From positions 8,459 through 72,458 of the forward strand of contig JAMQHH010000013.1 in assembly GCA_025993875.1 (NCBI GenBank): DNA of 64,000 bases, in the 5' to 3' direction. This document shows, piece after piece, positions 3,284 to 64,000 of the stretch. The first letter of the stretch is position 1, and every line of letters begins with the position of its first letter. Position numbers and translations under genes: made by a program. Below the pieces are notes generated by a model. That model ran no database searches. It was given only the letters and a program-made list of their open reading frames with translations, and was not told where the DNA came from. This stretch comes from Candidatus Dojkabacteria bacterium (GTDB taxonomy: Bacteria > Patescibacteriota > Dojkabacteria > J137).

Positions 3284-3488
3284 GCCTACACAAAATTAGA
3301 TACGGAAAATTTACGCAAACACAGCTTTTTTAGCTAATATAATAGCTATCTGAAAGCATAAAAAATAGACGCAAATCATTTCTTGTAATAGTTTATCGGT
3401 AAAATTTAATGCAGAAAATGTAAAAAGGTAATATAATTTTACTCTGAGTGGCTTAAACCCAAGCGTTATAGTATAATTTCAAATTAAT

Positions 3489-3561: not shown

Positions 3562-3591
3562 ATTAGATTTATTTATTATTTCGTTTTTTTT

Positions 3592-14795: not shown

Positions 14796-15575
14796 TTGTA
14801 TATGATACAATTACCACCAAATAATCGTAAGAAAATATATCTCCCAAAACATTCTATAGATGGAGCTTTTCTAAAGCTTTTTCTTATATATTTTTTGAAA
14901 TATTTAACATTTCTAGCAATAATTATTTTTGGATCTCCATTTTTTGTATGGTTTTACGTAGGAGATAATGCGCTTATGGGTTCCAGTATAAATTTTTTGG
15001 GAGCGGGGTCTTTTTATTTCTTTACCTGGATAATATTTATTTTAGTTTCGTTAAATATTTTAACTGCGAAACTTTTTGCTTTACATTATAGTGACAGAAA
15101 GGGAGCAGATATCAAGACATTGGTGTTATTGATCGAAACAATTCTACAAGGAATTATCATTACTTTGGCAACTCAATTGTATTATAGTAAATTTGGATCA
15201 CTTAGTAATTTTATAGTACTATGGGGATATAATTGGCTTGCTTACCTAATAATTGTTTTGTTTTTTATAACTATTTTCAATGCCACCTATAAAAGAAAAA
15301 ATTTGCTTCCATTTTCTTTGCTAATAATTTTTGTTTTGTTTATTGAGTATTTTGGATCAAAATATTTTTCCTTAAATCGGGGCTTTTTTATTATGGCTTG
15401 TTTTACAGTAATGGGGCCATTAGGAATTATTAAGTACTGGAAGACGCTAAGGCTTGCTTTATCTCAAAAAAAAATTTACCTTGGGGTTCTTTCCTATACG
15501 TTAATCTCGATTATTTTAATTGCAATAATTCTTATTATATTTAATACCTCCTACGTAAGCCCGCCTCGTGGCTGA
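14796..15575 (+). CDS. Hypothetical polytopic membrane protein
   Basis: A 259-aa ORF with six or more hydrophobic segments. I recognise no family. Confidence 0.4.
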   Translation: MYMIQLPPNNRKKIYLPKHSIDGAFLKLFLIYFLKYLTFLAIIIFGSPFFVWFYVGDNALMGSSINFLGAGSFYFFTWIIFILVSLNILTAKLFALHYSDRKGADIKTLVLLIETILQGIIITLATQLYYSKFGSLSNFIVLWGYNWLAYLIIVLFFITIFNATYKRKNLLPFSLLIIFVLFIEYFGSKYFSLNRGFFIMACFTVMGPLGIIKYWKTLRLALSQKKIYLGVLSYTLISIILIAIILIIFNTSYVSPPRG

Positions 15576-23420: not shown

Positions 23421-24437
23421 ATGGAAAATAATATTTCCAAAGATCTGGCGGCTATGTCTCTTCAAGATCTCTTAGAGAATGGCATTCACTTTGGCCACGA
23501 GGCAAAAAGGTGGAATCCTAAGATGAGCAGGTTTATTTATGCTCAGAAAAATAACATTCATATTATTGATATCTCCCAAACACTGGAAAGACTAAAGGTT
23601 GCAGCCAAATTTTTGGAGGAAGCAGCGTCACGGGGGAATGTGCTTTTTGTTTCGACAAAAAGACAGGCAGTGGAAATTGTAAGAGATGCAGCAATAAGAT
23701 CAGGTTCTTACTATATGACTGCAAGATGGGTAGGCGGACTGTTAACAAATTTTGCAACAATAAAAAAGAGTTTAAATGCTCTTGTTGAACTCGAAAAATC
23801 CTTTGAGGAGGGAGTATTGGATAGAACAAAATATGAAGTTGCTTTAATGAAAAAAGAATGGGCAAGGCTGTTTAGGCTATATGGTGGAGTTAAATCTCTC
23901 TCGTCTAAACCCACCGCAATTGTTATTCTTGATACAAACTACGAAAAAGCAGCTGTAAAAGAAGCAAGAAAAATAGGAGTACCAGTTGTTGGGATTATTG
24001 ATACAAATTCCGATCCTGAAGACGCGGATTATCCTATCCCAGCTAATGATGACGCTATCAAATCAATAAGATTCTTAATTAATGTTTTAGCCGATGCTGT
24101 AATAAAGGGAAATAAAGGAAACGGCGTAAAGCATTCAATAAAGGATTATAGTAAGATAGAAGTAAAAATAATAAGAAGAGAAGAGGAAAAAGCAAACAAG
24201 GCTGAGGTTATTAATATTATGCCCGAAAAGTCTGTAGAAGCTGTTGTTACTAAACCGGAAGTTAAAAGAACATCATCTAAAGTTAAAGGAATTTTAGAAA
24301 GGGTAAAGGAAGAGGCTCAGAAAAAGGAGACTAAAAAACCTTCTGCTGCGAAAAGTAAAACAATTAAGGCAACAAAGGAGAAGGCTGTAAAATCTGAGGG
24401 CACAAAATCTAAAAAAAAGGTAGCTAAAACAAAATAA
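23421..24437 (+). CDS. rpsB: 30S ribosomal protein S2 with a long Lys/Glu-rich C-terminal extension
   Basis: An S2 core (GIHFGHEAKRWNPKM...) runs to about residue 240. It is followed by a roughly 95-aa highly charged K-rich tail. Confidence 0.93.
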   Translation: MENNISKDLAAMSLQDLLENGIHFGHEAKRWNPKMSRFIYAQKNNIHIIDISQTLERLKVAAKFLEEAASRGNVLFVSTKRQAVEIVRDAAIRSGSYYMTARWVGGLLTNFATIKKSLNALVELEKSFEEGVLDRTKYEVALMKKEWARLFRLYGGVKSLSSKPTAIVILDTNYEKAAVKEARKIGVPVVGIIDTNSDPEDADYPIPANDDAIKSIRFLINVLADAVIKGNKGNGVKHSIKDYSKIEVKIIRREEEKANKAEVINIMPEKSVEAVVTKPEVKRTSSKVKGILERVKEEAQKKETKKPSAAKSKTIKATKEKAVKSEGTKSKKKVAKTK

Positions 24438-41112: not shown

Positions 41113-42288
41113 ATGAAATATTTAAAACAGCTAGGAACAAGGCAAAGAACAATAATTGCTACAGCAATTTGTTCTATTGCTATTTTTTTGTTTACAAACC
41201 CTATTATATCGAGAATAGGGGATTACGTTTTGCCTCCCTCTGCGCCGGTTAACGTAACAGTAAGGGTTGAAAACAATAGGGTATCAGTATCCTGGAATGC
41301 TCCTAATAATAGCGATTTGTACGGTTACAATATTTCGTACAAAGTGGGAGCAATTTCCAATTTGGCCGTAGTAACTGCAAGTGAATACTTTATTGATTTT
41401 GATGAGACAGAAATAGGGGAGAGCACATACATCGAAATAAAAGTCTCCTCTTTAGATAATTCAGGATTGTCTTCCTCAGAGATAGATATTAACGAAAAAT
41501 TTAAAGAGATAAAGAATTTTGGGATAAAAAAATATAATATAAAAGATAACGCCTTAAGTAATTTTTTGTACACTGAGACATTTGCTATTGTCTTAGCGGT
41601 ATTATTAGCTTTATTGAACCTTTGGGTTTTATTTTACAAGGTTGACTTAATCAGCTTTTTTACAATTGCAATATTTCCTTCTGCAGTAATAATCCCATTT
41701 TCGATATTTTCATTAACATATGCCTTAAGTTTGAATGCATTTATTACGAAATTTGTCTTTTCTTTGGCAATATCCTTTGCAGGAGGCATTTTAACGTATT
41801 TTATTATTCTTACATCAAATATTTTAAATGGTGCAAGATATAAAAAACTACCATTAGAGCAGGCAGCTAAGGCTTCTCACTTTATTTTCTCGTTAATTTC
41901 TGTGTATTTGGCAGTTATTTATGTATACGCACTTAACATAAACATAATTTTTAAGATAATTGCTATTTTTAGTATCTCGTTTTATTTTAGTTTTGCGGCT
42001 GTTTTTTTTGTTACAAGTGCCAAGCGGGTTTTAAAAGCACTCGTTAAAGGCACGACAATTTCATTAACTTTGGTTTTATCAATTCTTGTTCTTTCTGTTT
42101 GGCCAATACAAACAACATATATGGTTTTATCTATTGCAATTATCTATTACGTTTTATTAAATATTGCTTTAGAAACAAGAACAATTTTAAGTAAGTATAT
42201 ATATATCGAATTTATTATTTTACTTTTGTTGGTGTTTATAACTATAGGGGCCACAGCTGTGTGGGGTATAATGGGTACGCTTTTATAA
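41113..42288 (+). CDS. Membrane protein: N-terminal signal-anchor, fibronectin type III-like ectodomain, then ~8 transmembrane helices
   Basis: PSAPVNVTVRVENNRVSVSWNAPNNSDLYGYNISYKV is a classic FN3 signature. The C-terminal 230 aa are extremely hydrophobic. Confidence 0.5.
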   Translation: MKYLKQLGTRQRTIIATAICSIAIFLFTNPIISRIGDYVLPPSAPVNVTVRVENNRVSVSWNAPNNSDLYGYNISYKVGAISNLAVVTASEYFIDFDETEIGESTYIEIKVSSLDNSGLSSSEIDINEKFKEIKNFGIKKYNIKDNALSNFLYTETFAIVLAVLLALLNLWVLFYKVDLISFFTIAIFPSAVIIPFSIFSLTYALSLNAFITKFVFSLAISFAGGILTYFIILTSNILNGARYKKLPLEQAAKASHFIFSLISVYLAVIYVYALNINIIFKIIAIFSISFYFSFAAVFFVTSAKRVLKALVKGTTISLTLVLSILVLSVWPIQTTYMVLSIAIIYYVLLNIALETRTILSKYIYIEFIILLLLVFITIGATAVWGIMGTLL

Positions 42289-47762: not shown

Positions 47763-48155
47763 TTATTTTGTTATTATATTAAGTTCAAATTCGGGAGAGT
47801 TTAATGCTCCCAATAATTGGTTAAACTGCTCCTTTGATCTTTCGGTATCCATTATCGCTGGCATAAAAGATATTGTTCCATCGGGGTTTTTTAGTAAAGA
47901 AAAATATCCTTCATTAATATCTTCGGGACTTAACACATCCTCAGTTTGAAAGTTGATCTTTTTTAGGACATCGTAATGAAAAACAAAGCTGGGAAAAATC
48001 CAGGCTGCATTCTGTTGTGGGATAATAATGAATTTGAATAAGTAAGCAGATCTTTCTTTTCTTTTTGCAAGCACATAATCACTATTCATGACATCCCACA
48101 GCCTTCTCTTTTCTTCCTCCAGGTTTATAAACTTTTGTGCCTCCTTTTTCCACAT
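47763..48155 (-). CDS. Hypothetical protein (130 aa)
   Basis: The ORF abuts the upstream gene with a 1-nt junction. No family recognised. Confidence 0.35.
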   Translation of the reverse strand: MWKKEAQKFINLEEEKRRLWDVMNSDYVLAKRKERSAYLFKFIIIPQQNAAWIFPSFVFHYDVLKKINFQTEDVLSPEDINEGYFSLLKNPDGTISFMPAIMDTERSKEQFNQLLGALNSPEFELNIITK

Positions 48156-49414: not shown

Positions 49415-51292
49415 ATGAACTCTTCTGCTTCAGATAATAATCAAAAAGATCTTGCGCAAAAGGCTAAGGAATACCTTTTAAATAAGACGGGAGATTCCCA
49501 TCAGAGCGATACATCGGGAGCGAGCGATTCTGCTTCGCAGAAAGTTCGGGGGCTAACCAATATTCTGGACGCGCTTTTGGTTAAGGGAAAAATCTCTACG
49601 GAGCAATACAATACATTGAAATTTGAAAGTGTAAATACCTCCAAATCGGTCGAAACTTTACTTATTGAGCAAGGTATTTTAAACAATTCACAAATTACCG
49701 AGATAATTGCGGAAATGAAGGGAATTGCTTTTGTAACCTTACGGGATTATGAAATTCCTACACCACTTTTAAATAAATTTCCCAAAGAAGTTGCCGAATC
49801 TACCATGGCGGTACCTTTTATGGAAAGTGATCTTAGGGTAAAGGTAGGGATGAAAGATCCTCTTGATTTGCAAAAAATTAAATACATTGAATCTGTTGTA
49901 GGAAAAAAAGTGGATGCGTATTTTGCACCAGAGGCAGAGATAAAAACAATTATTGAAACAAGGTACGGAGCACAGATTGGCAAAGAAGTGTCTGAAGCCC
50001 TAGCTGCTGTTGGTAATTTTACGTTGCTTGATATCGATAAGGCAGATTCTACCGAATCTATGGCAGATATAGAGAGTGCCCCATTAATAAAAGTTGTAAA
50101 CATGATTTTAAATTATGGTATTTCCCACAAATCTTCGGATATACACATTGAACCAAGAGAAAATATTATAAGTGTTAGATTTCGCAATTCCGGTATACTA
50201 GCCGAAAAACTTACCTTGCCTAAAAAATTACTGCCTTCGATTGTTACCCGTATAAAAATTCTTTCAAACGCAAAAATTGATGAGCACAGAGTACCTCAGG
50301 ATGGAAGGTTTCAGGTTAAGGATAAAAATAGCATTGTAGATGTAAGGGTATCTATTATCCCTTCTGTGTATGGTGAAAAAATTGCTTTAAGGCTTTTGGA
50401 AAAAACATACGGTATAAAAAATATGGAAGAACTTGGAATAAGAGGGATAAGCTATGCAAGATTAAACGATGCTTTAAAGAAAACACAAGGAATAATTTTG
50501 GTTACAGGTCCAACCGGTAGTGGTAAAACACAAACGCTTGCCAGTTCGCTTAAGATTTTAAATACAACGGCTGTAAATATTCTAACGCTGGAAGACCCTG
50601 TAGAAATAAGAATGGATGGTGTTACACAGGTTCAGGTTAATTCTCAAATAGGGCTTACTTTTGCCAATGGGTTAAGATCTTTTTTAAGACAGGACCCCGA
50701 TATTATAATGGTAGGTGAGATTAGAGATTCTGAAACTGCAAGTCTGGCTGTCCAGGCAGCTTTGGTAGGAAGACTTGTTTTATCAACAGTACACACCAAT
50801 AGTGCTGCTGGAGCATTTGTAAGATTAACAGATATGGGAGTAGAACCTTTTTTACTCTCTTCTACTGTTAACATTGTTTTAGCTCAAAGGCTTGTTAGAG
50901 TTTTGTGTGACTGTAAAGAACCATATAATGCAGCTTCCGAGCAGCTTAGCGAGTTGCATACCCACCTCGATGCTTTGCATGGAGTTGCGCTTTATGATGA
51001 AAATGATAAATTAAAATTGGAGTTTAAAACCGATACCCAAAACGTTACCTTATATAAAAAGGTTGGGTGCCCAAAATGCAACCAAACCGGTTATATAGGT
51101 AGGACCGGAATCTTTGAAGCACTTAAAATGTCCGAAAAAATTTCCTCTCTGGTAATGAAAAAGGCATCTATTTCGGAAATAAACAAAAAAGCTATAGAGG
51201 AAGGGATGGTAACATTAATCCAGGATGGTTATATAAAAGCTTTAGAGGGTATTACAACTTTAGAGGAGGTAGTAAGAGTAAAAAACGAATAA
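49415..51292 (+). CDS. pilB: Type IV pilus assembly ATPase PilB (GspE family) with N-terminal GSPII_E_N domain
   Basis: Walker A GPTGSGKT, Asp/His boxes, and the tetracysteine motif (CDC...C..C). Confidence 0.9.
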   Translation: MNSSASDNNQKDLAQKAKEYLLNKTGDSHQSDTSGASDSASQKVRGLTNILDALLVKGKISTEQYNTLKFESVNTSKSVETLLIEQGILNNSQITEIIAEMKGIAFVTLRDYEIPTPLLNKFPKEVAESTMAVPFMESDLRVKVGMKDPLDLQKIKYIESVVGKKVDAYFAPEAEIKTIIETRYGAQIGKEVSEALAAVGNFTLLDIDKADSTESMADIESAPLIKVVNMILNYGISHKSSDIHIEPRENIISVRFRNSGILAEKLTLPKKLLPSIVTRIKILSNAKIDEHRVPQDGRFQVKDKNSIVDVRVSIIPSVYGEKIALRLLEKTYGIKNMEELGIRGISYARLNDALKKTQGIILVTGPTGSGKTQTLASSLKILNTTAVNILTLEDPVEIRMDGVTQVQVNSQIGLTFANGLRSFLRQDPDIIMVGEIRDSETASLAVQAALVGRLVLSTVHTNSAAGAFVRLTDMGVEPFLLSSTVNIVLAQRLVRVLCDCKEPYNAASEQLSELHTHLDALHGVALYDENDKLKLEFKTDTQNVTLYKKVGCPKCNQTGYIGRTGIFEALKMSEKISSLVMKKASISEINKKAIEEGMVTLIQDGYIKALEGITTLEEVVRVKNE

Positions 51293-51309
51293 TTAATACA
51301 AACAATATT

Positions 51310-52530
51310 ATGGCATTTATAAATCTTACAAATAATGAAAAACCAAATGTGATCCCAAGCAGCAATATTTCGACTTCTGCTGTTTCGGGTAACGTTAACT
51401 CGTCTCAAAGTAGTATAGACGACTTAAATGCTCAGGCGTCTTCCATACTTAATAATGTGGACTCCAATTTGGTTGAATTGGAGAAACTTTTGGCAACGGC
51501 AGTTAACTTAAAGGCCTCTGATTTACACTTAAATACTGATTATCGTCCATATGTAAGAGTGGATGGAAAACTTGAACAACTAAATTTTCCGATACTTAAC
51601 AAAGAACAGATAGAAAATTTTGTTAAACAGCTTCTCCAAAGTAGAAAAGAGGTTAACTTATCTGAACTTTTTGAGTACGATATGACATTTGAGGCAATAA
51701 ACAGAAGGTTTAGGGTAAATATTTTTAGGGAGATGGGACATTTTTCTATTGTTTTAAGATTAATTCCGGAATCTATTCTTTCGTTAGACGATTTAGACCT
51801 GCCAGTTGTTTTAAAGGAGCTAATAAATTTTGCTAATGGACTGGTTTTGGTAACCGGTCCCACAGGGAGTGGAAAATCGACAACAATAGCTTCTTTGTTA
51901 AATCTTATAAACCTTACACAAAAAAAACATATTGTAACTTTAGAGGATCCTATCGAATTTGTTTTTCCTAAAGGACAAGGGCTTGTCGATCAAAGGGAAT
52001 TCAGCATTGATTTTAAAAACTGGGACGATGCCCTAAAATCAGTTTTAAGGCAGGATCCTGATGTGGTTATGATAGGCGAGATGCGTGATCTAGAAACTAT
52101 TGAGTCGGCTATTCAAATTGCCGAGACCGGGCATTTAGTTTTTGCAACCTTACACACAAACAGCGCCTCTCAAAGTATCGATAGAATTATTGATATCTTT
52201 CCTTCGGAGAAGCAATCACAGATAAAATTACAACTTTCCAATGTTATAAGAGCAATTGTTTCTCAGAGGCTTGTGCCAATAACTGGCGGAGGAAGAAAAG
52301 CTGCATGCGAAATTTTAATAGCGACACCTGCAGTTAAAAATTCTATAAGGGAAAATACTGCCAGCCAGATCGATAATTTAATTCAGACAGGTTCTGATGT
52401 AGGCATGATTTCGATGGAAAGGGCTTTAGTAAGGCTGGTGGAAGAAGGGCTAATTTCAGAAGAAACAGCTAAATCTTTTAGCATAAAGCCTGCAGAAATT
52501 GATACACTTTTATCTAAAAGACTTTTTTAA
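51310..52530 (+). CDS. pilT: Type IV pilus retraction ATPase PilT
   Basis: GPTGSGKSTT Walker A, and a PilT-like length and motifs (AIRAIVSQRLV). Confidence 0.88.
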   Translation: MAFINLTNNEKPNVIPSSNISTSAVSGNVNSSQSSIDDLNAQASSILNNVDSNLVELEKLLATAVNLKASDLHLNTDYRPYVRVDGKLEQLNFPILNKEQIENFVKQLLQSRKEVNLSELFEYDMTFEAINRRFRVNIFREMGHFSIVLRLIPESILSLDDLDLPVVLKELINFANGLVLVTGPTGSGKSTTIASLLNLINLTQKKHIVTLEDPIEFVFPKGQGLVDQREFSIDFKNWDDALKSVLRQDPDVVMIGEMRDLETIESAIQIAETGHLVFATLHTNSASQSIDRIIDIFPSEKQSQIKLQLSNVIRAIVSQRLVPITGGGRKAACEILIATPAVKNSIRENTASQIDNLIQTGSDVGMISMERALVRLVEEGLISEETAKSFSIKPAEIDTLLSKRLF

Positions 52531-52533
52531 AAA

Positions 52534-53760
52534 ATGGAGTTTAACTATGTTGTAATAAATTCTCGGGGAGAACGTATATCGGGAAAAAAAGAAGCCGAGC
52601 AAAAGGAAGATGTATTTAACTTCCTTATGTCTAAAGGCTTTACTGTTATCTCATTAACCGAGGCTATTAATATAGATCTTTCAACTTTTGTCAGTACAGA
52701 TTTAGGTGGGATACCTTTAAAGGAAAAGGTTTTGGTAATTAAACAGCTTGCAACAATGATTTCGGCAGGAATTCCAATTATCCAGGCTCTGGATTTACTT
52801 GTAAAGCAGACAGAAAAACCATCATTACAAAAAAAATTAAACGAAATTTATAAAGCGGTAGAAAGAGGTCTAACTTTAACTGAGGCTTTTGGAAGCCAGT
52901 CCGGAATATTATCCGAGGTTCAAATAAACCTTTTGGCTGCAGGCGAGAAAAGTGGAAATTTGGTGCAGATACTGGGAAAAATAGCTTTAGATATGGAAAA
53001 AAGCAAAACATTAAGAGGGCAGGTTATTGGTGCACTTATATACCCGGCAGTTATTTTTGTTGCAATGATTGCCGTTATAGTAATTTTAATTTTATTTATG
53101 GTTCCGCAGGTAAAAGATTTATATGCTTCGTTTGGAAGAAATGATTTGCCTTTTGCTACAACTATTTTAATCGAGATAAGTAATTTTTTTTCAAACTCTT
53201 TTTCAATAGTTGTGCTTTTAATTTTAGGTTTAACTGTTTATTTTGCATTAAGATATACAAACTCTACCTATAAAGGTAGAAGATTTTTAGATAAATTAAA
53301 ACTTAGGATTCCTGTTTGGGGAACACTTCTAAAAAAAATGGAAGTGGTTCAATTTTGCAGAATTTTTAATATGTTGCTCTCCAGCGGGCTCCCTATTACA
53401 GATTCGGTGGAAATTGTAGCCAAAGCCTTATCCAATAAAAATTTTAGTGATGTTCTTCTTTTTGCAAGGGATGATATTATAAAAGGTACTCCGCTCTCTT
53501 TGGCATTAGCCAAACACAATAAAAATACAATCTACCCTTTGGTATTAATAAAAATAATTTCGGTAGGAGAGGAATCGGGCAAAATTGAAAAAGTGTTGGA
53601 AGATATGACATCTTTTTACGAAATTGAAGTAAACCAGATGACTGCAAATTTGACAAAGCTTATAGAGCCTTTTATTATGTTAATAGCAGGAGGCTTGGTA
53701 ATGTTTTTGGCACTAGCCATTTACACTCCTACTTTGCAAATTGTGCAAAACATAAGTTAA
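52534..53760 (+). CDS. pilC: Type IV pilus inner-membrane platform protein PilC (GspF family)
   Basis: Two GspF repeats, three TMs, 408 aa. Confidence 0.88.
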   Translation: MEFNYVVINSRGERISGKKEAEQKEDVFNFLMSKGFTVISLTEAINIDLSTFVSTDLGGIPLKEKVLVIKQLATMISAGIPIIQALDLLVKQTEKPSLQKKLNEIYKAVERGLTLTEAFGSQSGILSEVQINLLAAGEKSGNLVQILGKIALDMEKSKTLRGQVIGALIYPAVIFVAMIAVIVILILFMVPQVKDLYASFGRNDLPFATTILIEISNFFSNSFSIVVLLILGLTVYFALRYTNSTYKGRRFLDKLKLRIPVWGTLLKKMEVVQFCRIFNMLLSSGLPITDSVEIVAKALSNKNFSDVLLFARDDIIKGTPLSLALAKHNKNTIYPLVLIKIISVGEESGKIEKVLEDMTSFYEIEVNQMTANLTKLIEPFIMLIAGGLVMFLALAIYTPTLQIVQNIS

Positions 53761-53772
53761 TTTATTTTTTAT

Positions 53773-54309
53773 TTGGTTCTTATGACCAAAAAATCCGCTT
53801 TCTTAAAGGGTTTTACAATCCTGGAACTTATAATAGGTATGGCAATCGTTGCTGTACTTATGGGGCTAGGTATTGCAGGAGTGTCAACCCTGCAGCAATC
53901 TACTCGAAATACAGAAAGAAGAACGGCCTTGCAGGCAGTTTATACCGAGGTAGAGGCAATGAGAGGAGACTTTGGCGCATATCCAGAGCAGATAAAGGTA
54001 GTAACATATTCTTCCAGCTCTACGACTTTGGTATTATGCCAAAAGTCTGGATCAGGAACTTCCTGTGGGACAGGAGGCTCTCGAAATGTAACTCTTTCGA
54101 ACTCTGCTTATGTTGTTCAAAACAGCACCGAAGCTGCCTCAACAACAACAGAGAGCGTTTATTGCTACTCCAGGCCAAGCAGTACAAGTTTTAGCCTTGC
54201 AGTATCTTTAGAGGGAGGATCAGCTCCATACGCTTATGGAAGTGCAACAGAATGTTGGGATACAGCCAATAACACTATTCCAGTAGCCAGTGCAAATAGA
54301 ATAAAATAA
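53773..54309 (+). CDS. Type IV (major) pilin with class III prepilin signal and C-terminal disulfide pair
   Basis: KG|FTILELIIGMAIVAVL is a prepilin peptidase site with Glu+5. The C-terminal half is Ser/Thr-rich and carries a Cys pair. Confidence 0.8.
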   Translation: MVLMTKKSAFLKGFTILELIIGMAIVAVLMGLGIAGVSTLQQSTRNTERRTALQAVYTEVEAMRGDFGAYPEQIKVVTYSSSSTTLVLCQKSGSGTSCGTGGSRNVTLSNSAYVVQNSTEAASTTTESVYCYSRPSSTSFSLAVSLEGGSAPYAYGSATECWDTANNTIPVASANRIK

Positions 54310-55089
54310 ATGCTTACTTCATTTGAGCTTTTATTAATACTCCCGGCTTTGATTGCCGGGAGTTTTATTGGATCAATTTTGATTTTTATTTTAGCAGGGG
54401 TTAACCCAGAAAAAATTCTAGCTAATATAACTATAAAATTTCTACTTTCATTATTTTTACCTTTGGGGTTTTCTACCAGTATTTTACTTACAACTAAATC
54501 TCCAATAACATTTTACAACAGGCAAGTTATCAATTTAATAAAAGTAGTGTCTTCTATTAATTTTGTTGTAGTGATAATTTTGTCTATTGAGCTTATTGGT
54601 CAGAAATATTTTCCTTTAGTTATTGGCTTGCTTTTTATAATCTTCATTTTTTTTGTAATTGTAATAATAGATATCTGGAAAAAAAACACTAATGGCTATG
54701 AAATTTTTATCTTTGTTTTTCTTGCTGTTTTACTAAATGTAATCGGGGCAATAAATAATTTAGCTATAAAATCAGCTAATTTATTTGGTATAGGAAGTGT
54801 TGAAAACCTTCTAACAGGAGTATTTATAGTGTTTGTTTTCTTTTTAGTTTTAATGATTTTGGGTTCTAAAAATTTTGATAGCAGATATTTTTTTATTTTG
54901 GTATCTATAGGATTATGTTTAGGACCATTTCACTTTTTGCTTAATCTTGTGCTGGCAGTTTTTTTAGAATTATCTATAGGTTTGATGGTAAAGATTTTCG
55001 GCGATGAACTTTACAAAAATCTTTTTTCTTTTACATTATTTTTATACGTAGGATTTTTAATCTCGGTACTTAGCATGTTATTTAGTTAA
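54310..55089 (+). CDS. Polytopic membrane protein, possible prepilin peptidase (A24-like)
   Basis: Eight hydrophobic helices. Its position between pilin genes and a GDELYK segment hint at PilD, but the canonical motifs are not clear. Confidence 0.3.
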   Translation: MLTSFELLLILPALIAGSFIGSILIFILAGVNPEKILANITIKFLLSLFLPLGFSTSILLTTKSPITFYNRQVINLIKVVSSINFVVVIILSIELIGQKYFPLVIGLLFIIFIFFVIVIIDIWKKNTNGYEIFIFVFLAVLLNVIGAINNLAIKSANLFGIGSVENLLTGVFIVFVFFLVLMILGSKNFDSRYFFILVSIGLCLGPFHFLLNLVLAVFLELSIGLMVKIFGDELYKNLFSFTLFLYVGFLISVLSMLFS

Positions 55090-55153
55090 AAATCTTTCCT
55101 ACCTGCATAGAAATTGCATATAAGCTGCATATAATGTAAGCTGTTGTTAGAGT

Positions 55154-55735
55154 TTGCATATTATGAAAAAATTCTTTTCTGCATTTACTGTACTCGAACT
55201 AATAGTTGTTTTAGGCGCAATAGCAATCTTACTAACTTTGGGAATAGAGTTTATTTTAAGGTTTAGATCGAATGTCGAAATTCAAACGTCGTATTCCGAA
55301 GTGGTTAGTGCAATTAAGACTCTGCAAAATGCAGCAAGAAATTCACTAAAGATATTTGATTCTTCTGACCAGACTGATATTTACGCCTTTATACCATCGG
55401 CAGAACAAAAGAGCTATATTTTTGAGGGGTGTTTTTGGGATTCAGGTTCTTCTTTAAATGCAACCTGCCTACCTGCCGAGATTGCCATAACTACAATTAA
55501 GGGGTTGCCTGCCGAAATGCTTTTGTTTGGAGAATACTCTACCCCCGAAGGAGTGGTATCTAAAGGATTTTGCGGGTTTGAGAGAAAAACAGGAAAAGTA
55601 TTTGGGTTTACGTATAATGCGAGTAATTTAGATGTGTATAATAGTGGCACATGCATTTACACATTGCGAAACGAAAAGACAGGAGAGGAAAAACGGGTTA
55701 ATATGGATATAGGAAAAAGTACAATAATCATTTAA
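55154..55735 (+). CDS. Minor pilin / pseudopilin-like protein
   Basis: N-terminal SAFTVLELIVVLGAIAIL prepilin-like helix (Ala at -1). Confidence 0.5.
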   Translation: MHIMKKFFSAFTVLELIVVLGAIAILLTLGIEFILRFRSNVEIQTSYSEVVSAIKTLQNAARNSLKIFDSSDQTDIYAFIPSAEQKSYIFEGCFWDSGSSLNATCLPAEIAITTIKGLPAEMLLFGEYSTPEGVVSKGFCGFERKTGKVFGFTYNASNLDVYNSGTCIYTLRNEKTGEEKRVNMDIGKSTIII

Positions 55736-55736
55736 T

Positions 55737-56264
55737 ATGAAAAGAAAGCTCTTAGCATACTCACTGTTGGAGGTACTTGTTGCCTTAATAATTATTTCTA
55801 CTGCTATGGTTTCTTCGGTAGCAATACTGGTTAAACCATTTAGAATTGTTAGAGAGAATGAGATCAAAAGCTATATTGATAGTATAACTATTCGAGCTTT
55901 TGAATTCTTAAAATCCAAACTGGAGATCCCGGTTCAAGGCGATATAGTATCAATAGGAACAGATCAGAACCAGTACTTTTCTTTAGGCGAAGACCCTGTA
56001 ACAAAAAAACTCTTTTTAAAGCCCGAGTATTCACCTATTACAGATGATTGTATAAATAATGATCTTGATAGTTATTTTTACACAACCCAGAATATTGAAC
56101 TAAGTGGCTCATCAAAAATCAAAATCTGTCTTGGAATTAATGTGGTTAAAGGTGTTGGAGAGATTTACACTATAACAGTTTTAACAAAATATCCTAATAA
56201 TGAAGGAGAGATATTAACCGAAACAATAAAAACAGTAAGAAAAAGCGGATTTTATGAAAAATAA
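55737..56264 (+). CDS. Minor pilin / pseudopilin-like protein
   Basis: N-terminal AYSLLEVLVALIIISTAMV prepilin-like helix. Confidence 0.5.
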   Translation: MKRKLLAYSLLEVLVALIIISTAMVSSVAILVKPFRIVRENEIKSYIDSITIRAFEFLKSKLEIPVQGDIVSIGTDQNQYFSLGEDPVTKKLFLKPEYSPITDDCINNDLDSYFYTTQNIELSGSSKIKICLGINVVKGVGEIYTITVLTKYPNNEGEILTETIKTVRKSGFYEK

Positions 56265-56820
56265 TTTTAGAAAACAAAGATTAAAAGGCTACTCTATTAT
56301 CGAACTTATAATAAGCATGGGAATTATTGCTGTAGCTACAGGAGCTCTTTTATCATCATTAATTTATGGATTTAGGTTAAACGTAAATGCAATAGCCAGG
56401 TCTTTTGTTAGGGAGGAGATAGCAAATGTGGCTAGCTTAATAGTAAAAGATATCCGAAACTCTGATAGATTAATTCTTTGCTCCGGTGAATTTAATATTG
56501 GAGAAGTTCTAAGTGACTATGGAAGATGCAGGTTTGTAAGTAACGGAAAGATTTACGATTGGACAGTTTGCGACGAAACCACCGGTTCGCCTTCACTCTG
56601 CAAGTATTATCTTGATTTGAACTTTAATGTGGTTAATATTGAATACAAGGCTTCCTCTAATATTCTAGTACAAAAACTTATTTTTGAATCTACCCTTAAT
56701 TCCAACTCAAAAGATGGTAATATATTAGTAACTATTGTTGGAGCCCATGCTAACGCCAACTTGGAGATCTTTAATATATTTAGCCAGTTATCGGCATCCA
56801 CAAGGAATTTTGAAATTTAA
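56254..56820 (+). CDS. Minor pilin with canonical prepilin signal
   Basis: KG|YSIIELIISMGIIAVATGA. Confidence 0.65.
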   Translation: MKNNFRKQRLKGYSIIELIISMGIIAVATGALLSSLIYGFRLNVNAIARSFVREEIANVASLIVKDIRNSDRLILCSGEFNIGEVLSDYGRCRFVSNGKIYDWTVCDETTGSPSLCKYYLDLNFNVVNIEYKASSNILVQKLIFESTLNSNSKDGNILVTIVGAHANANLEIFNIFSQLSASTRNFEI

Positions 56821-56823
56821 CAT

Positions 56824-57684
56824 ATGCGAATAAAAGGCCAGATACTTATAACAACTCTACTCTCTTTAACAATTATATCCTTATTGGTTGCGTCATTAAC
56901 TATGATTGCAGGTAGAGATGTTGTTCAGCTTGCAACATCAGAAAGGTACGAAGAATTTTATAATATTGCAGAAACTGAATTAAGAAATCACATCGATCAA
57001 ATAGGTATTAGTTCGGCTCTGGGCAGCTTTTTTGAGGAAGGTGAATGTATTGATGCTTTTTGGTGCCAAAAAAATATATCAAGTAATTTTACACCGGAAG
57101 ATATTTTAACAAACACTTTATTAGTTGTTAGAGATACAAGGGAGATTAAAGAGATGGAGATAAAAAAAGATAGTTCTTTTAATATAAAACTAAATTCAAA
57201 TTATACAGGCTCAATAATATTTGATTGGGATTATGATCCATCGCAGGTTGATATAGCATTTGAAGTTTCACTTTTGGTAAACAATGGAGGGAAAAAAGAG
57301 GTTTTAAGGGATGTATATAATCCTTCAAATATTTTGGGCGTTGGAGTATCGGGTGTTTTATTTCCAATAGGTTTCTCCCAGGCTAACAAAACTCATTTCG
57401 TTATTGATTTAAGCGCAATAATTTTGAATAAGGAAGCTTTATGGGTTACTCCACGTATTCTTTCGCCAGGAAGCGATTCAGACTATGTAATACTAAAAAG
57501 CGCCACATTTAGCGATTTAAGTAACGTGCCTTATCAAATTAGAGAATATATCTCCGAAACTTCTCAGACAGGGATAGAAAGTTCTCCTGTAGCAAAAGTT
57601 ATTTCCAGAATTCCTTTAACACCCCAAATAGGATCTTTGTTTGATTATGTTTTGTTGACAGATGGGCAGCTGAAGCTTGATTAA
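56824..57684 (+). CDS. PilX-like minor pilin / pilus-associated protein
   Basis: N-terminal KGQILITTLLSLTIISLLVASL hydrophobic helix, followed by a 250-aa soluble region. Confidence 0.4.
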   Translation: MRIKGQILITTLLSLTIISLLVASLTMIAGRDVVQLATSERYEEFYNIAETELRNHIDQIGISSALGSFFEEGECIDAFWCQKNISSNFTPEDILTNTLLVVRDTREIKEMEIKKDSSFNIKLNSNYTGSIIFDWDYDPSQVDIAFEVSLLVNNGGKKEVLRDVYNPSNILGVGVSGVLFPIGFSQANKTHFVIDLSAIILNKEALWVTPRILSPGSDSDYVILKSATFSDLSNVPYQIREYISETSQTGIESSPVAKVISRIPLTPQIGSLFDYVLLTDGQLKLD

Positions 57685-57746
57685 AGAATTTTGGTTGTTC
57701 TATTCTAGTTAATACTTTATTATATTTATAGTTAAATTTACTCGAA

Positions 57747-58796
57747 ATGGCTGGGAATATAGATTTTGTAGGATTAAATATTGGTCATAGCTCAATAAAA
57801 CTAGCAAGTATAGGCAAAGCAAAAGACGGCTCGTTAGAACTTTTAGGATTAAGTAATACACCTACATCTTTAGATTTTTCATCCGATAGATCTGCTGTAA
57901 ATTCAGAAAAACTTGCTTCGGAACTTCAGCTAGCTTTTAAAAATTCTAAATTTAGAACAAAAAACATTGTTATATCTATGTCCGAAACAGAGGTTTTCTC
58001 CCGCCTACTTACTCTTCCTGCTGTTGCGGAGCCTGAAATTTCCGAAGCTATAAATTGGGCGTTAAAACCAATGGTTCCTATTTCGATGGATAGTTTAAAT
58101 ATCTCATTTATGGAGATTGACCGGAAAAAAAATGCTAATTCTGAAATGGTTAATTGGTATGTGGTAGCAGCACCTAAAGAGAGGGTAAATCAGTATGTAG
58201 AGATTTTTTCTAAGGCAGGATTAGCGATTTTAGCTGTTGAAACTGAATCACTTGCTTTGTGCAGAGTTATACAACATAGCTATAAAATTTCTTCAAGTGA
58301 AGATGTATTTATTATGGATCTAGGTGCTGAAAACACGAATGTTATTTTGGCAAGGGGTGGAGTACCTATTTTTTCGCAATCAATAAGTACAGGTTCTGAT
58401 GCCCTAACAAAGGTTATTGCTTCAGATTTTGGAATTGATGTGCAAAAGGCGGAGGAATACAAAATTCAATATGGTATTTTAATGGAAAAAGATGGTGAAA
58501 AAATAGGGCGATCGATTCTTCCAATTTTAGATTTGGTAACAGGCGAATCACTACGAATATTAAGATACTATAATGAGAAAATAAAAGGCCAGGGTATTAA
58601 AAGGGCTTTTATAACAGGGGGAGGTTCTGCTTTAAAGGGAATAGCTCCTTATTTCCAAAATAAGTCTGGACTAACAACAGAAATAGCTAATTTGTTAACT
58701 AATATAAAATCAAATATTGTTTTAGAGGATAATAAAAAAAACATTATGAATAGCTTTAATGTAGCTTTTGGACTTGCTTTAAAGGGATTTATTTAA
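57747..58796 (+). CDS. pilM: Type IV pilus assembly protein PilM (actin-like ATPase)
   Basis: VGLNIGHSSIKLA N-terminus and an actin/FtsA fold throughout. Confidence 0.85.
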   Translation: MAGNIDFVGLNIGHSSIKLASIGKAKDGSLELLGLSNTPTSLDFSSDRSAVNSEKLASELQLAFKNSKFRTKNIVISMSETEVFSRLLTLPAVAEPEISEAINWALKPMVPISMDSLNISFMEIDRKKNANSEMVNWYVVAAPKERVNQYVEIFSKAGLAILAVETESLALCRVIQHSYKISSSEDVFIMDLGAENTNVILARGGVPIFSQSISTGSDALTKVIASDFGIDVQKAEEYKIQYGILMEKDGEKIGRSILPILDLVTGESLRILRYYNEKIKGQGIKRAFITGGGSALKGIAPYFQNKSGLTTEIANLLTNIKSNIVLEDNKKNIMNSFNVAFGLALKGFI

Positions 58797-58799
58797 TAT

Positions 58800-59366
58800 A
58801 TGGCTCAGGATAAACAAAGAAATTTTTATTCATTTAATCTGCTTACTCCGCCAACAGAGGAAGAAAAGGTTATAGCCTTTGAAAAAGACAACACTGTTTT
58901 TTACTCTGTTGTGCTAATTTTTATTGCCTTCATTATCTTTATTATGTTTTCGATAATTCACCTGATTGTTGTTCTGCCAAAAAAAAATGAAACAATAAGT
59001 AGAATTAGTAAACTAGACGAACAGATAAGAACATTTGATGAAATAAAGGCTCAGAATGGTGAACTATACATAAAATCACAAATTTTAGAGCCAATTCTTA
59101 GAGAAGATATAAAAATTGCTGAGCTTCTCGATATTGCCTCCCGTTTAGTGGAAAATATAAACACTGTCGAGATAAAAAGCTACTCCCGTAAAAGTGACGG
59201 TGATTTTATCGTTTTACTAGACATGCAATCATTTTTGGAGATTAATAAGGTTATTGAAAATTCTAAATTAATTAAGGAAGTTCAAAACGTTTTTGTAACA
59301 AGATTAACAAAAAATTATTCTACCAATATTGTAGAAGGAGCACTTACTTTTAGTGTGGTATTATAA
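58800..59366 (+). CDS. pilN: PilN-like bitopic pilus assembly protein
   Basis: Single TM after a short cytoplasmic N-terminus, then a coiled-coil. It sits immediately after pilM. Confidence 0.55.
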   Translation: MAQDKQRNFYSFNLLTPPTEEEKVIAFEKDNTVFYSVVLIFIAFIIFIMFSIIHLIVVLPKKNETISRISKLDEQIRTFDEIKAQNGELYIKSQILEPILREDIKIAELLDIASRLVENINTVEIKSYSRKSDGDFIVLLDMQSFLEINKVIENSKLIKEVQNVFVTRLTKNYSTNIVEGALTFSVVL

Positions 59367-59372
59367 AGCTTT

Positions 59373-60083
59373 ATGAAAAAAATTAGAATTAATGAAATTT
59401 TTCCATTTATAAAAAACAATCTTTTGCCTATTGCAACATTAACGGGCTTTATTATTATAGTTTTAGTCCTGTTGATACCAAAACTTTCACAAATCTTTGG
59501 AGATATAGAGGTAATAACACAAAATAATCAGATAATTAAAGAAAAAAACAGTGAACTTTTAACGCTTTCGGCTCTTAAAGATTCTTATCCCCAAATTGCA
59601 ACAAATTTGAACTTGATTAACACTATTGCTCCCAGTGGGGTTACGCAGGTTTTAGGTTTTAGAGATAAAATTACCGAGCTTGCCGAAACTAATTCATTAA
59701 TTGTAACCTCTCAATCATTTAGTGAGAATGAAATAATAAACAATCTGTCACAAATATATAGGGATTCTTCGGGAAATGTTTTAATGATACAATCAATCCC
59801 TTCCCTTTTTTCGATAGAAGGAAAATACGATGATATTATTAGATTTATAAAGGGTTTAGATTTAATTGGCGATTTTGTGGTAATTAAACAGATGGATTTT
59901 ATAGTAAAAGATAGACTTAACCCTTTAGCTACTCCCAAAACAGAGATTCGTTTTGATAAATTTCTTTTTAATTCAACAAACGCAGAACTTCTTAGAGAAA
60001 GCTATCTGCAAATTCCTTCAACATTGAGACCTTCCGAAGAGTTTTTAGAATATATAAATACCCGTTATAAGGATCTACTTTAA
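59373..60083 (+). CDS. pilO: PilO-like bitopic pilus assembly protein
   Basis: Single N-terminal TM. The call rests on position after pilN and on topology. Confidence 0.45.
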   Translation: MKKIRINEIFPFIKNNLLPIATLTGFIIIVLVLLIPKLSQIFGDIEVITQNNQIIKEKNSELLTLSALKDSYPQIATNLNLINTIAPSGVTQVLGFRDKITELAETNSLIVTSQSFSENEIINNLSQIYRDSSGNVLMIQSIPSLFSIEGKYDDIIRFIKGLDLIGDFVVIKQMDFIVKDRLNPLATPKTEIRFDKFLFNSTNAELLRESYLQIPSTLRPSEEFLEYINTRYKDLL

Positions 60084-61942: not shown

Positions 61943-62500
61943 TTATTGGGAAATTTTACTTTTCAAAAAAATAAGGGTATTCTCCCCAATTTTTTCTAGC
62001 CTTATTAGATTAAATACTTTTAGCGAATTAAGTTGTGATAGATTTACACCAGTCGGTATTTTAATGACAATAACCCCATCTTTTACAATTTTATCCTTAA
62101 GCTTGTATAGTGGAATACTGGTAATTAAATTAAATGGCGGATCGGCTATTATAAGATCAAAGGTGTTATTGGGCGACTTTCTTAAGAAACGGTCAAAATC
62201 ATAATTATATATATAATAGCTATCTTCGCTAACTTGAGCTTTGTGTAAATTTTCGAGGATTATCTTTACAGAGTCGCTATCACTCTCCAAAAACGTTACA
62301 TGTGTTGCTCTTCTACTTAATGCCTCTATGCCGATGTTTCCTGAGCCGCTAAATAGATCGGCCACAAACTTATAACTGTAGTTATTATCTAGAATATCAA
62401 AAAGTGTAGTTTTTACTCTTTCTGTTATTGGCCTTATTCCTAAAGGAATTTTAAGCTTTAGGTTTTTATATTTTCCTGCAATTATTCTTGGACTATTCAT
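61943..62500 (-). CDS. rsmD: 16S rRNA (guanine966-N2)-methyltransferase RsmD-like
   Basis: DLFSGSGNIGIEALSRRA, the DPPF motif (IIADPPFN), 185 aa. Confidence 0.85.
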   Translation of the reverse strand: MNSPRIIAGKYKNLKLKIPLGIRPITERVKTTLFDILDNNYSYKFVADLFSGSGNIGIEALSRRATHVTFLESDSDSVKIILENLHKAQVSEDSYYIYNYDFDRFLRKSPNNTFDLIIADPPFNLITSIPLYKLKDKIVKDGVIVIKIPTGVNLSQLNSLKVFNLIRLEKIGENTLIFLKSKISQ

Positions 62501-62951
62501 TTAAAATTAAGTAATATAAAACAATACCTACAGTTGTTGCTATATTTAGGGAGTTTTTTTTACCTTTCATTGGTAGTTCAACAGTTATATCGCTTAATTC
62601 TACTATTTCCTCTGCAACTCCCGCAATTTCGTTACCAAAAATAAGAGCTAGTTTTGTAAAATTTTCTAGAAAATTTACTGGTTTAGCATTTTGTGACTGC
62701 TCTACAGCGCAAATTTGAAATCCCTTTTTCTTTAAAATATTTATTGCATCGCGCGTGTTGCTGTAATAACTGGTTTTTACATAATTTTCGGCTCCGATAG
62801 CTGTCTTTTTTACTCTGGGGTGCCCTGCCTGAGGGGTTATTCCACATAGATATAATTCCAATACTCCAGCTCCATCACATGTTCTTAAAATAGCTCCAAC
62901 ATTTAGTGCCGATCTTACATTATCCAAAACAACAGCTATATCCTTTTTCAT
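62493..62951 (-). CDS. Small SPOUT (TrmH/TrmL-like) RNA 2'-O-methyltransferase
   Basis: 152 aa with SPOUT motifs (NVGAILRTCDGAG, IFGNEIAGV, SLNIATTVGIVLY). Confidence 0.75.
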   Translation of the reverse strand: MKKDIAVVLDNVRSALNVGAILRTCDGAGVLELYLCGITPQAGHPRVKKTAIGAENYVKTSYYSNTRDAINILKKKGFQICAVEQSQNAKPVNFLENFTKLALIFGNEIAGVAEEIVELSDITVELPMKGKKNSLNIATTVGIVLYYLILNE

Positions 62952-62956
62952 ATAAG

Positions 62957-64000
62957 TTATTCGAATAAAGATATATTTTTTATATTAAGTCTGTAAAGCT
63001 TTTCTGCGAGTATTTTACTAGCTTCCAGCTGATTAATAAAGTTCTCAACTTTTGCAATTTTGAACAAAGGTACTCCACTTTGCATTACACCATATATTTC
63101 ACCTGGTCCTCTTAACTTTAAATCAAATTCCGAAATTTTAAACCCATCGGTATTATCTTTTAAAAACTCAAGCCTTTTTTGTGCTGTGTCCGAAATCTTG
63201 TCCGAATAAAATAAAAAGCACCAGCTTTCTTTGCTTGATCTCCCTACTCTACCTCGTATTTGGTGCAATTGAGCCAATCCAAATCTCTCCGAATTTTCAA
63301 CAATAACTATATTTGCATTGGGAACATCCACTCCTACTTCTATAACTGTTGTTGCCAATAAAATTTGAGTTTTATTTTCTATAAACCTTTTAAAAACCGA
63401 TTCCTTGTTTTTTATTTTTCCGTGTAAAAAATCAATATTAAATTCTGCGAAGCTCTCTTTTAGTATTTTGTATGTTCTTTCTACCGATTTAAGCTCGGCT
63501 TTATTGTTATCGTTTATTGTTGGGCAGATCCAAAATATTTGATCTCCTAATTTTATTCTTTCTTTTAACCATTTTATAGAAGCATCTCGTTTTTCCTCTT
63601 TTACAACAAAGGTTTTAATTGGCTTTCTTCCAATTGGTTTGGTTTTAATATCTATAACTTCTAAATCCCCAAAAAAAGCTTGAGCAACTGTTCGAGGGAT
63701 AGGTGTGGCGGTAAGATTTAGAAAATGCGGAGTACTGCCTAAAATAAATGGCTTTAAAAGCTCCTCTCTTTGAGTAACTCCAAATCTATGTTGTTCGTCT
63801 ACTATAACAGCCCCGATTTTTGAAAAAAGTTTAAATTTGCGTTTTAATAATGCGGTTGTTCCAATGTAAGTTGTAGCCTTCTCGATTTTTTTTTCTTTGC
63901 CTGTTACTAATACTGTTTTTAACCCCCATTTACCTAGAATTTTACCGAAAGTATTTAAGTGTTGTTCTGCTAATATAGTTGTTGGACATAGTACAACTGT
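62957..64000 (-). CDS. recG: ATP-dependent DNA helicase RecG (C-terminal ~350 aa; N-terminus beyond window end)
   Basis: The minus-strand frame is open from 63358 to the window edge. Manual translation gives VIVDEQHRFGVTQRE (DExH box), LTATPIPRT, and the helicase C-terminal HQIRGRVGRS. The track ORF start at 63358 is only the first in-frame TTG. Confidence 0.85.
   Translation of the reverse strand, partial: TVVLCPTTILAEQHLNTFGKILGKWGLKTVLVTGKEKKIEKATTYIGTTALLKRKFKLFSKIGAVIVDEQHRFGVTQREELLKPFILGSTPHFLNLTATPIPRTVAQAFFGDLEVIDIKTKPIGRKPIKTFVVKEEKRDASIKWLKERIKLGDQIFWICPTINDNNKAELKSVERTYKILKESFAEFNIDFLHGKIKNKESVFKRFIENKTQILLATTVIEVGVDVPNANIVIVENSERFGLAQLHQIRGRVGRSSKESWCFLFYSDKISDTAQKRLEFLKDNTDGFKISEFDLKLRGPGEIYGVMQSGVPLFKIAKVENFINQLEASKILAEKLYRLNIKNISLFE

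Follow-up and report, generated by a model that had tools for sequence, protein, structure and literature searches.

The pilus gene cluster on a 64-kb stretch of contig JAMQHH010000013.1 (the whole stretch is hereafter called the window) raises two questions, namely what the pilus is used for and what has become of its prepilin peptidase, PilD. An earlier note on this DNA had described the cluster, at positions 49415-60083 of the forward strand, as a type IV pilus operon forming part of a probable natural-transformation apparatus, with a candidate peptidase encoded at 54310-55089. In this study, we report a computational analysis of the locus. We consider it quite likely that the cluster encodes a type IVa-like pilus machine belonging to the core genome of a Dojkabacteria-like bacterium of the Candidate Phyla Radiation (CPR; Patescibacteria), that its PilD homologue is dead and an active peptidase is encoded elsewhere, and that host contact is the main role of the pilus.

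Organisation and conservation of the pilus cluster

Open reading frames (ORFs) were called in six frames and assigned to families by Pfam and NCBIfam searches, using curated cutoffs where these are given; all coordinates are those of the window. The features of the cluster are as follows, with a slash marking the cleavage point of the pilin leaders and TM denoting transmembrane.

49415-51292, + strand: pilB, extension ATPase, 625 residues; PF00437 (T2SSE) 8e-123 and, N-terminally, MshEN PF05157 1e-13
51310-52530, + strand: pilT, retraction ATPase, 406 residues; TIGR01420 (PilT/PilU family) 1.2e-127, 425.9 bits against a cutoff of 319.1
52534-53760, + strand: pilC, platform protein, 408 residues; two repeats of PF00482 (T2SSF), 1e-51
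53782-54309, + strand: major pilin, 175 residues from the ATG; leader MTKKSAFLKG/FTILELI; TIGR02532 21.8 bits against a cutoff of 16.3
54310-55089, + strand: pilD-like gene, 259 residues, about eight TM helices; divergent A24 prepilin-peptidase homologue with the Asp of GxGD replaced by Tyr193
55163-55735, + strand: minor pilin 1, 190 residues; leader MKKFFSA/FTVLELI; weak N-terminal matches of the ComGC, ComGD and PpdA type
55737-56264, + strand: minor pilin 2, 175 residues; leader MKRKLLA/YSLLEVL; N_methyl 0.002, with N-terminal PilV and ComGE matches
56254-56820, + strand: minor pilin 3, 188 residues; leader ...RLKG/YSIIELI; N_methyl 21.2 bits, equal to the cutoff
56824-57684, + strand: minor pilin 4, 286 residues; leader MRIKG/QILITT in the translation, without Glu5
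57747-58796, + strand: pilM, actin-like cytoplasmic alignment protein, 349 residues; PF11104 (PilM_2) 6e-38; TIGR01175 169.4 bits against a cutoff of 133
58800-59366, + strand: pilN, 188 residues, one TM helix; leave-out model 4.4e-6
59373-60083, + strand: pilO, 236 residues, one TM helix; leave-out model 9.1e-10

The cluster consists of 12 ORFs separated by spacers of -11 to +73 nt. ORF boundaries agreed in full with the coordinates of the earlier note, which had counted eleven genes; the co-directional, tight arrangement and the gene identities were upheld, and the count is 12 by that note's own list. PilB scored 4e-159 against TIGR02538, which is under the equivalog cutoff of that model, and its translation ends in a C-terminal region with a CxxC...CxxC motif. 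The ORF of the major pilin is open from a TTG at 53773, upstream of the ATG at 53782. The predicted prepilin signals were borne out on checking, with class III signal peptides at the start of five ORFs and Glu5 present in all but minor pilin 4. In its large size and missing Glu5, minor pilin 4 resembles tip subunits of the GspK/PilX type and may be one of them.

PilM lies above its curated cutoffs, and direct Pfam and NCBIfam searches gave no matches for PilN or PilO. For these two, the genes 3' of pilM in 15-17 syntenic loci served as test set, and hidden Markov models (HMMs) were built from which the window and its three closest relatives had been left out, the PilN model being made from 11 distant syntenic orthologues. 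The leave-out models selected exactly the two window ORFs 58800-59366 and 59373-60083. Pfam matches were obtained for some of the syntenic orthologues themselves (PF05137 for 8 of 15 PilN proteins, PF04350 for 6 of 17 PilO proteins). Searched against the PDB, the PilN family profile matched Myxococcus PilN (3jc8, 2.6e-6), and the PilO family profile matched Myxococcus PilO (3jc8, 4.8e-10) and PilO 2rjz (7.9e-6). The N-terminus of the window PilN, FNLLTP, is a variant of INLLP, the motif by which the PilN N-terminus binds PilM. At the level of sequence, the identities of PilN and PilO are thus confirmed though the curated models miss both, and the set of PilM, PilN and PilO proposed previously is present.

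No secretin was detected by Pfam and NCBIfam among the larger ORFs of the window or in the approximately 7-10 kb past each of its ends, and PilP was likewise missing from the window and from these flanks, in keeping with the earlier description of a secretin-less, PilT-containing cluster. A search of a phage collection gave no matches. A PilB search of genome contigs returned solely betaproteobacterial MshE/PilB-like loci, at 37% identity and with no adjoining pilC or pilD.

The window has a GC content of about 33%, its gene content is that of the housekeeping genes of a reduced genome, and no rRNA genes lie within it. The gene order gyrA-gyrB-x-holB, pilB to pilO, rpsP-rnc-nusB was also found in four other lineages, L097, L014, L015 (AP024679.1) and L016, whose PilC proteins are 97%, 76%, 51% and 48% identical to that of the window, respectively. 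AP024679.1 is labelled Candidatus Dojkabacteria, and nearly all of the nearest named PilC homologues (41-51% identity) carry the label Candidatus Dojkabacteria (WS6), annotated as type II secretion system (T2SS) F family proteins. Dozens of independent public assemblies contain proteins identical to those of the window. In the comparison with L097, the window shows a synonymous divergence (dS) of about 0.7, and the ratio of non-synonymous (dN) to synonymous divergence is 0.03-0.09 for the 11 pilus genes other than the pilD-like gene; the major pilin is 95% identical (dN/dS 0.04), and minor pilin 1 has a dN/dS of 0.08. The leaders of the major and minor pilins are kept in the relatives, including lineages with a degenerate pilD-like gene, and the leader of minor pilin 4 is without Glu5 in L097, L014 and L016 also. 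Synteny in four other lineages together with dN/dS of 0.03-0.09 indicates that the pilus machine is vertically inherited and strongly selected, not a remnant.

These results confirm the cluster as a complete, strongly conserved secretin-less type IV pilus operon of the CPR type, a kind already described. In CPR bacteria, co-localised PilB, PilT, PilC, PilM, PilN, PilO, PilD and pilins have been reported together with com genes and no PilQ, and DNA scavenging was proposed as their role (Meheust et al. 2019, PMC6744442). The window has the same pilus inventory, likewise no PilQ, and ComEC, DprA and ComEA, but differs from that set in an in-operon PilD without the GxGD catalytic Asp. Monoderm Firmicutes (Streptococcus sanguinis, Clostridium; PMC6916266, PMC6497953) also have secretin-less type IVa pili, with PilT and PilMNO and with several minor pilins beside a single major one; unlike the window, these systems have a canonical PilD, their sequence identity to the window is low, and the comparison is a broad one.

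In the machine that these genes would specify, PilB would polymerise pilin on the PilC platform and PilT would depolymerise it, while PilM, PilN and PilO would together form the alignment complex. The fibre would be built of the major pilin and the four minor pilins, three of the latter with Glu5 and one, large and without Glu5, resembling a tip subunit. No secretin would be involved, as the envelope presumably has no outer membrane.

A divergent homologue of the prepilin peptidase

The 259-residue protein encoded between the major pilin and minor pilin 1 gave no Pfam or NCBIfam match at E up to 0.1 and none in a PDB profile search. Among 1.84 billion representative proteins, searched exhaustively, two relatives were found, and a word-indexed search gave one; a search with a five-sequence bridge alignment added four further proteins, all of them canonical A24 peptidases. 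At the equivalent position, the L016 gene is a PF01478 Peptidase_A24, and that of L015 has canonical VFDIL and GMGD motifs. A PilD profile was built from 30 canonical PilDs of CPR pilus operons, the window clade being left out. With the corresponding HMM, E was 8e-10 for the L014 protein and 0.012 for that of the window, the second-best score outside the profile members. In hhalign comparisons with the same profile, the window protein alone reached 89.4% probability, an alignment with its nearest homologue P0001 reached 92.4% (5e-7), and further addition of L014 gave 97.2% (4.5e-11), while all controls (the reversed template, seven other polytopic window proteins and 20 shuffles) remained at 1.7% or below. 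The region of homology is the catalytic core, residues ~113-254. Since synteny with L016, the HMM and hhalign scores and the clean controls all point to descent from the A24 family, the protein is, on sequence grounds, a genuine if strongly diverged homologue of the A24 prepilin peptidases, and it falls under every curated family threshold.

Two further proteins were considered as A24 paralogues and rejected. P0124, a candidate second paralogue of the window organism, is the in-operon PilD of another CPR organism. The window also contains a second 259-residue polytopic ORF (14796-15575), which has no family matches and adjoins the cyclophilin-comEA-comEC block; as a paralogue of the pilD-like gene it was rejected, with a BLASTP E of 0.011 over 42 residues.

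In the A24/GxGD protease class, activity depends on both Asp residues and on the GxGD motif (PMC4985597), and D...GxGD is present in 30 of 30 canonical CPR PilDs. In the column of the first catalytic Asp, the window protein has D121, and P0001 and L014 have Glu. The GxGD column reads D190-S-R-Y193 in the window, N-N-R-Y in P0001 and D-F-F-D in L014. Thirteen of the 37 family-conserved columns are kept in the window protein, in which the downstream motifs G-x-x-L-G and F-x-x-F-L are retained. Four N-terminal Cys columns, each conserved in at least 90% of the canonical proteins, are occupied in the window by Leu, Ile, Ser and a gap, and this four-Cys motif is gone from L015 and L016 too, that is, from the whole Dojkabacteria clade. 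The four-Cys N-terminal region, PF06750, is associated with N-methyltransferase activity. Set beside the A24 peptidases PilD, TcpJ and FlaK, which are GxGD di-aspartyl membrane proteases, the window protein shares the core and D121, and differs from them in D-S-R-Y for GxGD, the missing four-Cys motif, accelerated evolution and scores under the curated thresholds.

A displaced catalytic Asp was sought at two places. FGDE (230-233) was rejected as a moved GxGD, since its counterpart in canonical PilDs is K-F-R/K-D/E, a non-catalytic stretch that precedes the C-terminal PF-x-PF. A catalytic Asp shifted to D190 was likewise rejected, since P0001 has Asn in this column and the residue stands three positions off the register set by the downstream G-x-x-L-G.

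Compared with L097, the pilD-like gene has 64.9% protein identity against 88-97% for its neighbours, and 68% nucleotide identity against 84-90% elsewhere. Its dN is 0.20 (0.02-0.06 in the neighbours) and its dN/dS is 0.28, so that non-synonymous change has been about 4-10 times faster than in the adjoining genes; over the 259 codons there are no indels, and the ORF is intact. Because the GxGD Asp and the four-Cys motif are lost and constraint is relaxed but not absent, the protein is most likely proteolytically dead, a probable pseudo-enzyme, and we read it as an enzyme freed from catalytic constraint yet kept for some role. The earlier proposal of a candidate peptidase at this position is thus upheld as regards A24 descent, on synteny, HMM and hhalign, and fails as regards a conserved Asp pair, with Tyr193 in the window and Glu for D121 in P0001 and L014.

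Pilin cleavage is presumably still needed, because the leaders are canonical in the lineages whose pilD-like gene is degenerate. As all five pilins keep canonical cleavage motifs under strong purifying selection, another part of the genome probably encodes an active A24 enzyme, and we infer that it probably cleaves the pilins. No second A24 peptidase was detected by Pfam and NCBIfam among the larger window ORFs, including the other polytopic ones, or by a custom PilD HMM among six-frame window ORFs of at least 80 residues.

Putative expression signals around the pilin gene

Two putative signals flank the major pilin gene.

54339-54363, + strand: hairpin followed by a U-tract, 30 nt 3' of the pilin stop and within the 5' end of the pilD-like ORF
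53650-53678, + strand: weak, putative promoter-like sequence TTGACA-17-TATTAT in the 3' end of pilC, ~100 nt 5' of the pilin start

The hairpin has a 9-bp stem with 7 GC pairs, is followed by UUUUAUU and has a fold z-score of -5.5. The L097 hairpin is identical, and that of L014 shows a compensatory G>A / C>T pair, each change being synonymous. L016 and L015 have a strong hairpin at the equivalent post-pilin site, which in these lineages is an intergenic spacer. The hairpin is a probable pilin terminator or attenuator. The promoter-like site matches the consensus at 11 of 12 positions and is the best match of the region. Taken together, the hairpin and the promoter-like site suggest that, as is usual, the pilin gene forms a highly expressed unit of its own, from which transcription continues into the genes that follow.

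Role of the pilus and the competence genes

By analogy with the pilT-bearing pilus T4P-1 of Saccharibacteria, the main role of the machine would be host-cell contact and twitching, with DNA capture feeding ComEA, ComEC and DprA as an extra role. T4P-1 (Nanosynbacter lyticus TM7x, Southlakia epibionticum; PMC11623550, PMC10633639) has matching PilB/T/C, PilM/N/O and PilD and five pilins, among them a large pilin without a PilD-type leader; it is secretin-less, essential, and tied to twitching and host contact. The window differs from it in its Dojkabacteria-like lineage and its degenerate PilD homologue. On this analogy, host contact and motility are probably the most likely role, and DNA capture is a possible extra.

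The opposing explanation, which is that of the earlier note, holds that the cluster is mainly an apparatus for natural transformation or DNA scavenging, in which the pilus binds DNA, PilT retracts it, ComEA, ComEC and DprA carry out import, and the 259-residue protein is a working peptidase. We regard it as unlikely. The idea of DNA uptake is the published CPR model (PMC6744442) and not a new inference. The genes concerned were confirmed by Pfam and NCBIfam at the places given by the earlier note.

13304-13867, - strand: comEA, membrane anchor with SLBB and HhH domains; HHH_3 5e-15, SLBB 1e-10, TIGR01259 1.4e-18
11859-13307, - strand: comEC channel ORF, 482 residues, with an intact Competence domain; PF03772 2.5e-43, TIGR00361 model positions 74-413
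11009-11899, - strand: comEC metallo-beta-lactamase (MBL) ORF, 296 residues, with its own ATG and TM helix; Lactamase_B 1e-8, TIGR00361 model positions 440-663
11884-11891, - strand: A8 homopolymer at the comEC frame junction, read from the sequence
19884-20984, + strand: dprA; PF02481 2.4e-64

The presence of comEA, comEC and dprA within the same 64 kb, and of PilT in the cluster, speaks for transformation; but these genes lie outside the operon, 29-38 kb away from it, and comEA and comEC, some 36 kb off, are on the opposite strand. A ComF domain did not turn up in the general Pfam and NCBIfam scans of window ORFs, in which no search was aimed at ComF. The absence of pyrH between tsf and frr was reproduced (rpsB, tsf and frr are adjacent), a gene loss like that of CPR bacteria, which lack nucleotide synthesis and for which scavenging has been modelled (PMC6744442). 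Saccharibacteria are naturally transformable via ComEC, which also counts in favour; yet comEC, needed there for transformation, makes no contribution to fitness, and epibiotic growth requires the pilT-bearing pilus independently of comEC (PMC10633639). As comEC is dispensable for fitness in the only experimentally tested CPR bacteria, DNA uptake for nucleotide scavenging is disfavoured (PMC10633639). Mutants of the second Saccharibacteria pilus, T4P-2, moreover remain competent at the wild-type level (PMC11623550). In the window, no minor pilin is recognisable as DNA-binding, and the in-operon peptidase homologue lacks the GxGD Asp.

The state of comEC also tells against this explanation. Its channel and MBL ORFs overlap by 41 nt across the A8 run, with MBL in the +1 frame, and conceptual deletion of one A gives a fused 765-residue ComEC. 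The gene is frameshifted at A8 in all assemblies examined; because nine independent assemblies (L100-L106, L108) share the same run, the split is a fixed state and not an assembly error. Going by the sequence, comEC may encode a two-subunit protein, may be rescued by slippage at A8, or may have an inactivated nuclease module. The own ATG and TM helix of the MBL ORF make the two-subunit form possible. Competence-only ComEC proteins are present in transformable bacteria (PMC6299819), and fusion of ComEC to an MBL domain is rare in CPR (PMC6744442). Whereas ComEC is usually unfused to MBL in the published CPR set (PMC6744442), the MBL module of the window lies directly 3' of the channel ORF and would be in frame after loss of one A from A8.

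A trace of DNA exchange was found downstream of the pilus cluster, in a 711-bp tract (62457-63167) that is 100% identical to L097/L098 against an 18-kb collinear background of 84-90% identity, in which the next longest identical run is 82 bp. Within it lie the 3' ends of rsmD and recG and a complete spoU-type methylase gene. The tract appears to have been imported recently by homologous recombination between diverged lineages and, as such, favours the transformation explanation, as indirect evidence of continuing DNA exchange.

The full DNA-uptake pathway of the earlier note therefore holds as co-residence with comEA, comEC and dprA, and is weaker beyond that, in that nothing ties the pilus specifically to DNA uptake, the com genes are distant and comEC is frameshifted. 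Of its two suggested purposes, DNA scavenging and host attachment, the former is weakened by the dispensability of comEC in Saccharibacteria, and analogy favours host contact.

Alternative interpretations

Several points weigh against the reading that we prefer, in which a dead PilD homologue sits in a host-contact pilus. The active peptidase was not found in the ~7-10 kb past each window end either, that is, in about 80 kb covered in all. A dN/dS of 0.28 and a gapless ORF mean that the pilD-like gene is still selected, and some activity via other acidic residues is possible (candidates D121 and E165, the latter invariant in ENLLTG). Structure models of the protein were of low confidence, with an AlphaFold2 predicted local distance difference test score (pLDDT) of 43 from a two-sequence alignment, and of 50.6 with a predicted template-modelling score (pTM) of 0.42 from six sequences; Foldseek searches of the PDB with the better model returned noise alone. 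The monoderm envelope is presumed from the CPR literature rather than from this genome. Promoter-like sites are no commoner here than in shuffles, and the one near the pilin gene is a consensus match in AT-rich DNA.

That the 259-residue protein is an active peptidase with a non-canonical acidic pair, for example D/E121 and the clade-invariant Glu165 of G-x-x-E-N-L-L-T-G, appears to us more doubtful still than a transformation apparatus. The first catalytic position does stay acidic (D, E, E), the acidic residue of the D/E-N-L motif is invariant in 5 of 5 sequences of the Dojkabacteria clade, and the intact, gapless ORF with dN/dS below 1, the preserved pilin cleavage motifs and the missing further A24 gene in ~80 kb would all be accounted for. 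Against this, the window protein has lost the Asp and both Gly of GxGD, which every one of the 30 canonical CPR PilDs retains, and mutation of either Asp abolishes activity in this enzyme class (PMC4985597). The 13 family-conserved columns left out of 37 and the 4-10-fold non-synonymous rate, typical of lost enzymatic constraint, also disfavour catalysis.

A dead PilD homologue kept by selection within a pilus operon could have a non-catalytic job, as prepilin holdase or chaperone or as platform accessory, comparable to iRhoms beside rhomboid proteases; or, if the genome has no other A24 gene, an unconventional active site or a non-A24 route of pilin maturation might exist. This proposal is a tentative one, with somewhat better prospects than the transformation apparatus and well short of an expectation.

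It is highly improbable that the cluster encodes a type II secretion-like or ComG-like pseudopilus in place of a true surface pilus. PilB and PilC do score alike on GspE/GspF and PilB/PilC models, and the pilins give weak N-terminal matches to GspG and ComG models. The ComG pseudopilus of Bacillus and Streptococcus also shares with the window pilins with class III signal peptides, a monoderm setting (presumed for the window) and a possible role upstream of ComEA/ComEC. PilT above its curated cutoff, a PilM (PilM_2) and not a GspL, PilN and PilO are, however, hallmarks of type IVa pili that ComG systems lack, those systems having instead a dedicated peptidase, ComC; GspC and GspD are missing from the window.

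The least credible reading, a decaying, non-functional remnant in which loss of PilD was the first step of pseudogenisation, might appeal to the degenerate PilD and the reductive genome, and is contradicted by 11 other genes that are intact, syntenic in five lineages and held at dN/dS 0.03-0.09 at dS ~0.7.

Other features of the window and its relatives

Some further observations were made outside the pilus and competence genes. The ribosomal protein S2 at 23421-24437 has 338 residues, with a C-terminal extension of ~100 residues, and matches the NCBIfam 'sunset domain variant' S2 model at 2.4e-68, under its cutoff. At 5251-7372 on the - strand, an ATP-grasp gene (ATPgrasp_ST, 8e-56) overlaps a 7TM_transglut membrane protein gene by 8 nt, and the pair is also found in L110, another assembly of the same organism. 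L110 also has, at positions 1925-2819 and thus ~5 kb upstream of where the window starts, a toxin-antitoxin-like DUF6922 / AbiEii pair beside rpsA and clpB. The longest ORF of the nucleoside diphosphate kinase gene (3535-4200), which begins with a TTG at 3535, overlaps tRNA-Arg(CCT) at 3488-3562; gene callers start later (202 residues in L110), and the Pfam NDK match falls in two stretches, which suggests an insertion. Directly 3' of ruvB, 41113-42288 encodes a 391-residue protein with at least 10 predicted TM segments and a weak N-terminal fn3 match.

Between gyrB and a conserved gene for a 173-residue membrane protein, a 130-residue ORF (47763-48155) is fast-evolving, with 72% identity over 69 residues to L097, where it is split into small ORFs; it is absent from L014-L016. 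In the closed L015 sequence (AP024679.1, 2577-4488), gyrB itself is present as two ORFs, a 331-residue ATPase part and a 276-residue Toprim/C-terminal part, and is another split essential gene in the clade.

Conclusions

The operon is conceptually nothing new, a secretin-less type IV pilus together with com genes being a textbook CPR trait whose roles are under genetic dissection in Saccharibacteria. The useful outputs are corrections to the annotation of pilD, to comEC, which is frameshifted, and to PilN and PilO, which are real. Worth recording are a PilD homologue that is degenerate yet maintained, a hairpin embedded after the pilin gene, the split of comEC at A8 and the recombination tract. 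The hairpin provides a handle on the control of pilin expression, and the 711-bp identical tract one on gene flow, in an uncultivated lineage. Annotation of the pilD-like gene as a working PilD is unwarranted. If it is a retained pseudo-enzyme, or the sole A24 homologue of its genome, it would be a rare natural case, one that could reveal a non-catalytic contribution of a prepilin peptidase or an alternative form of pilin maturation.

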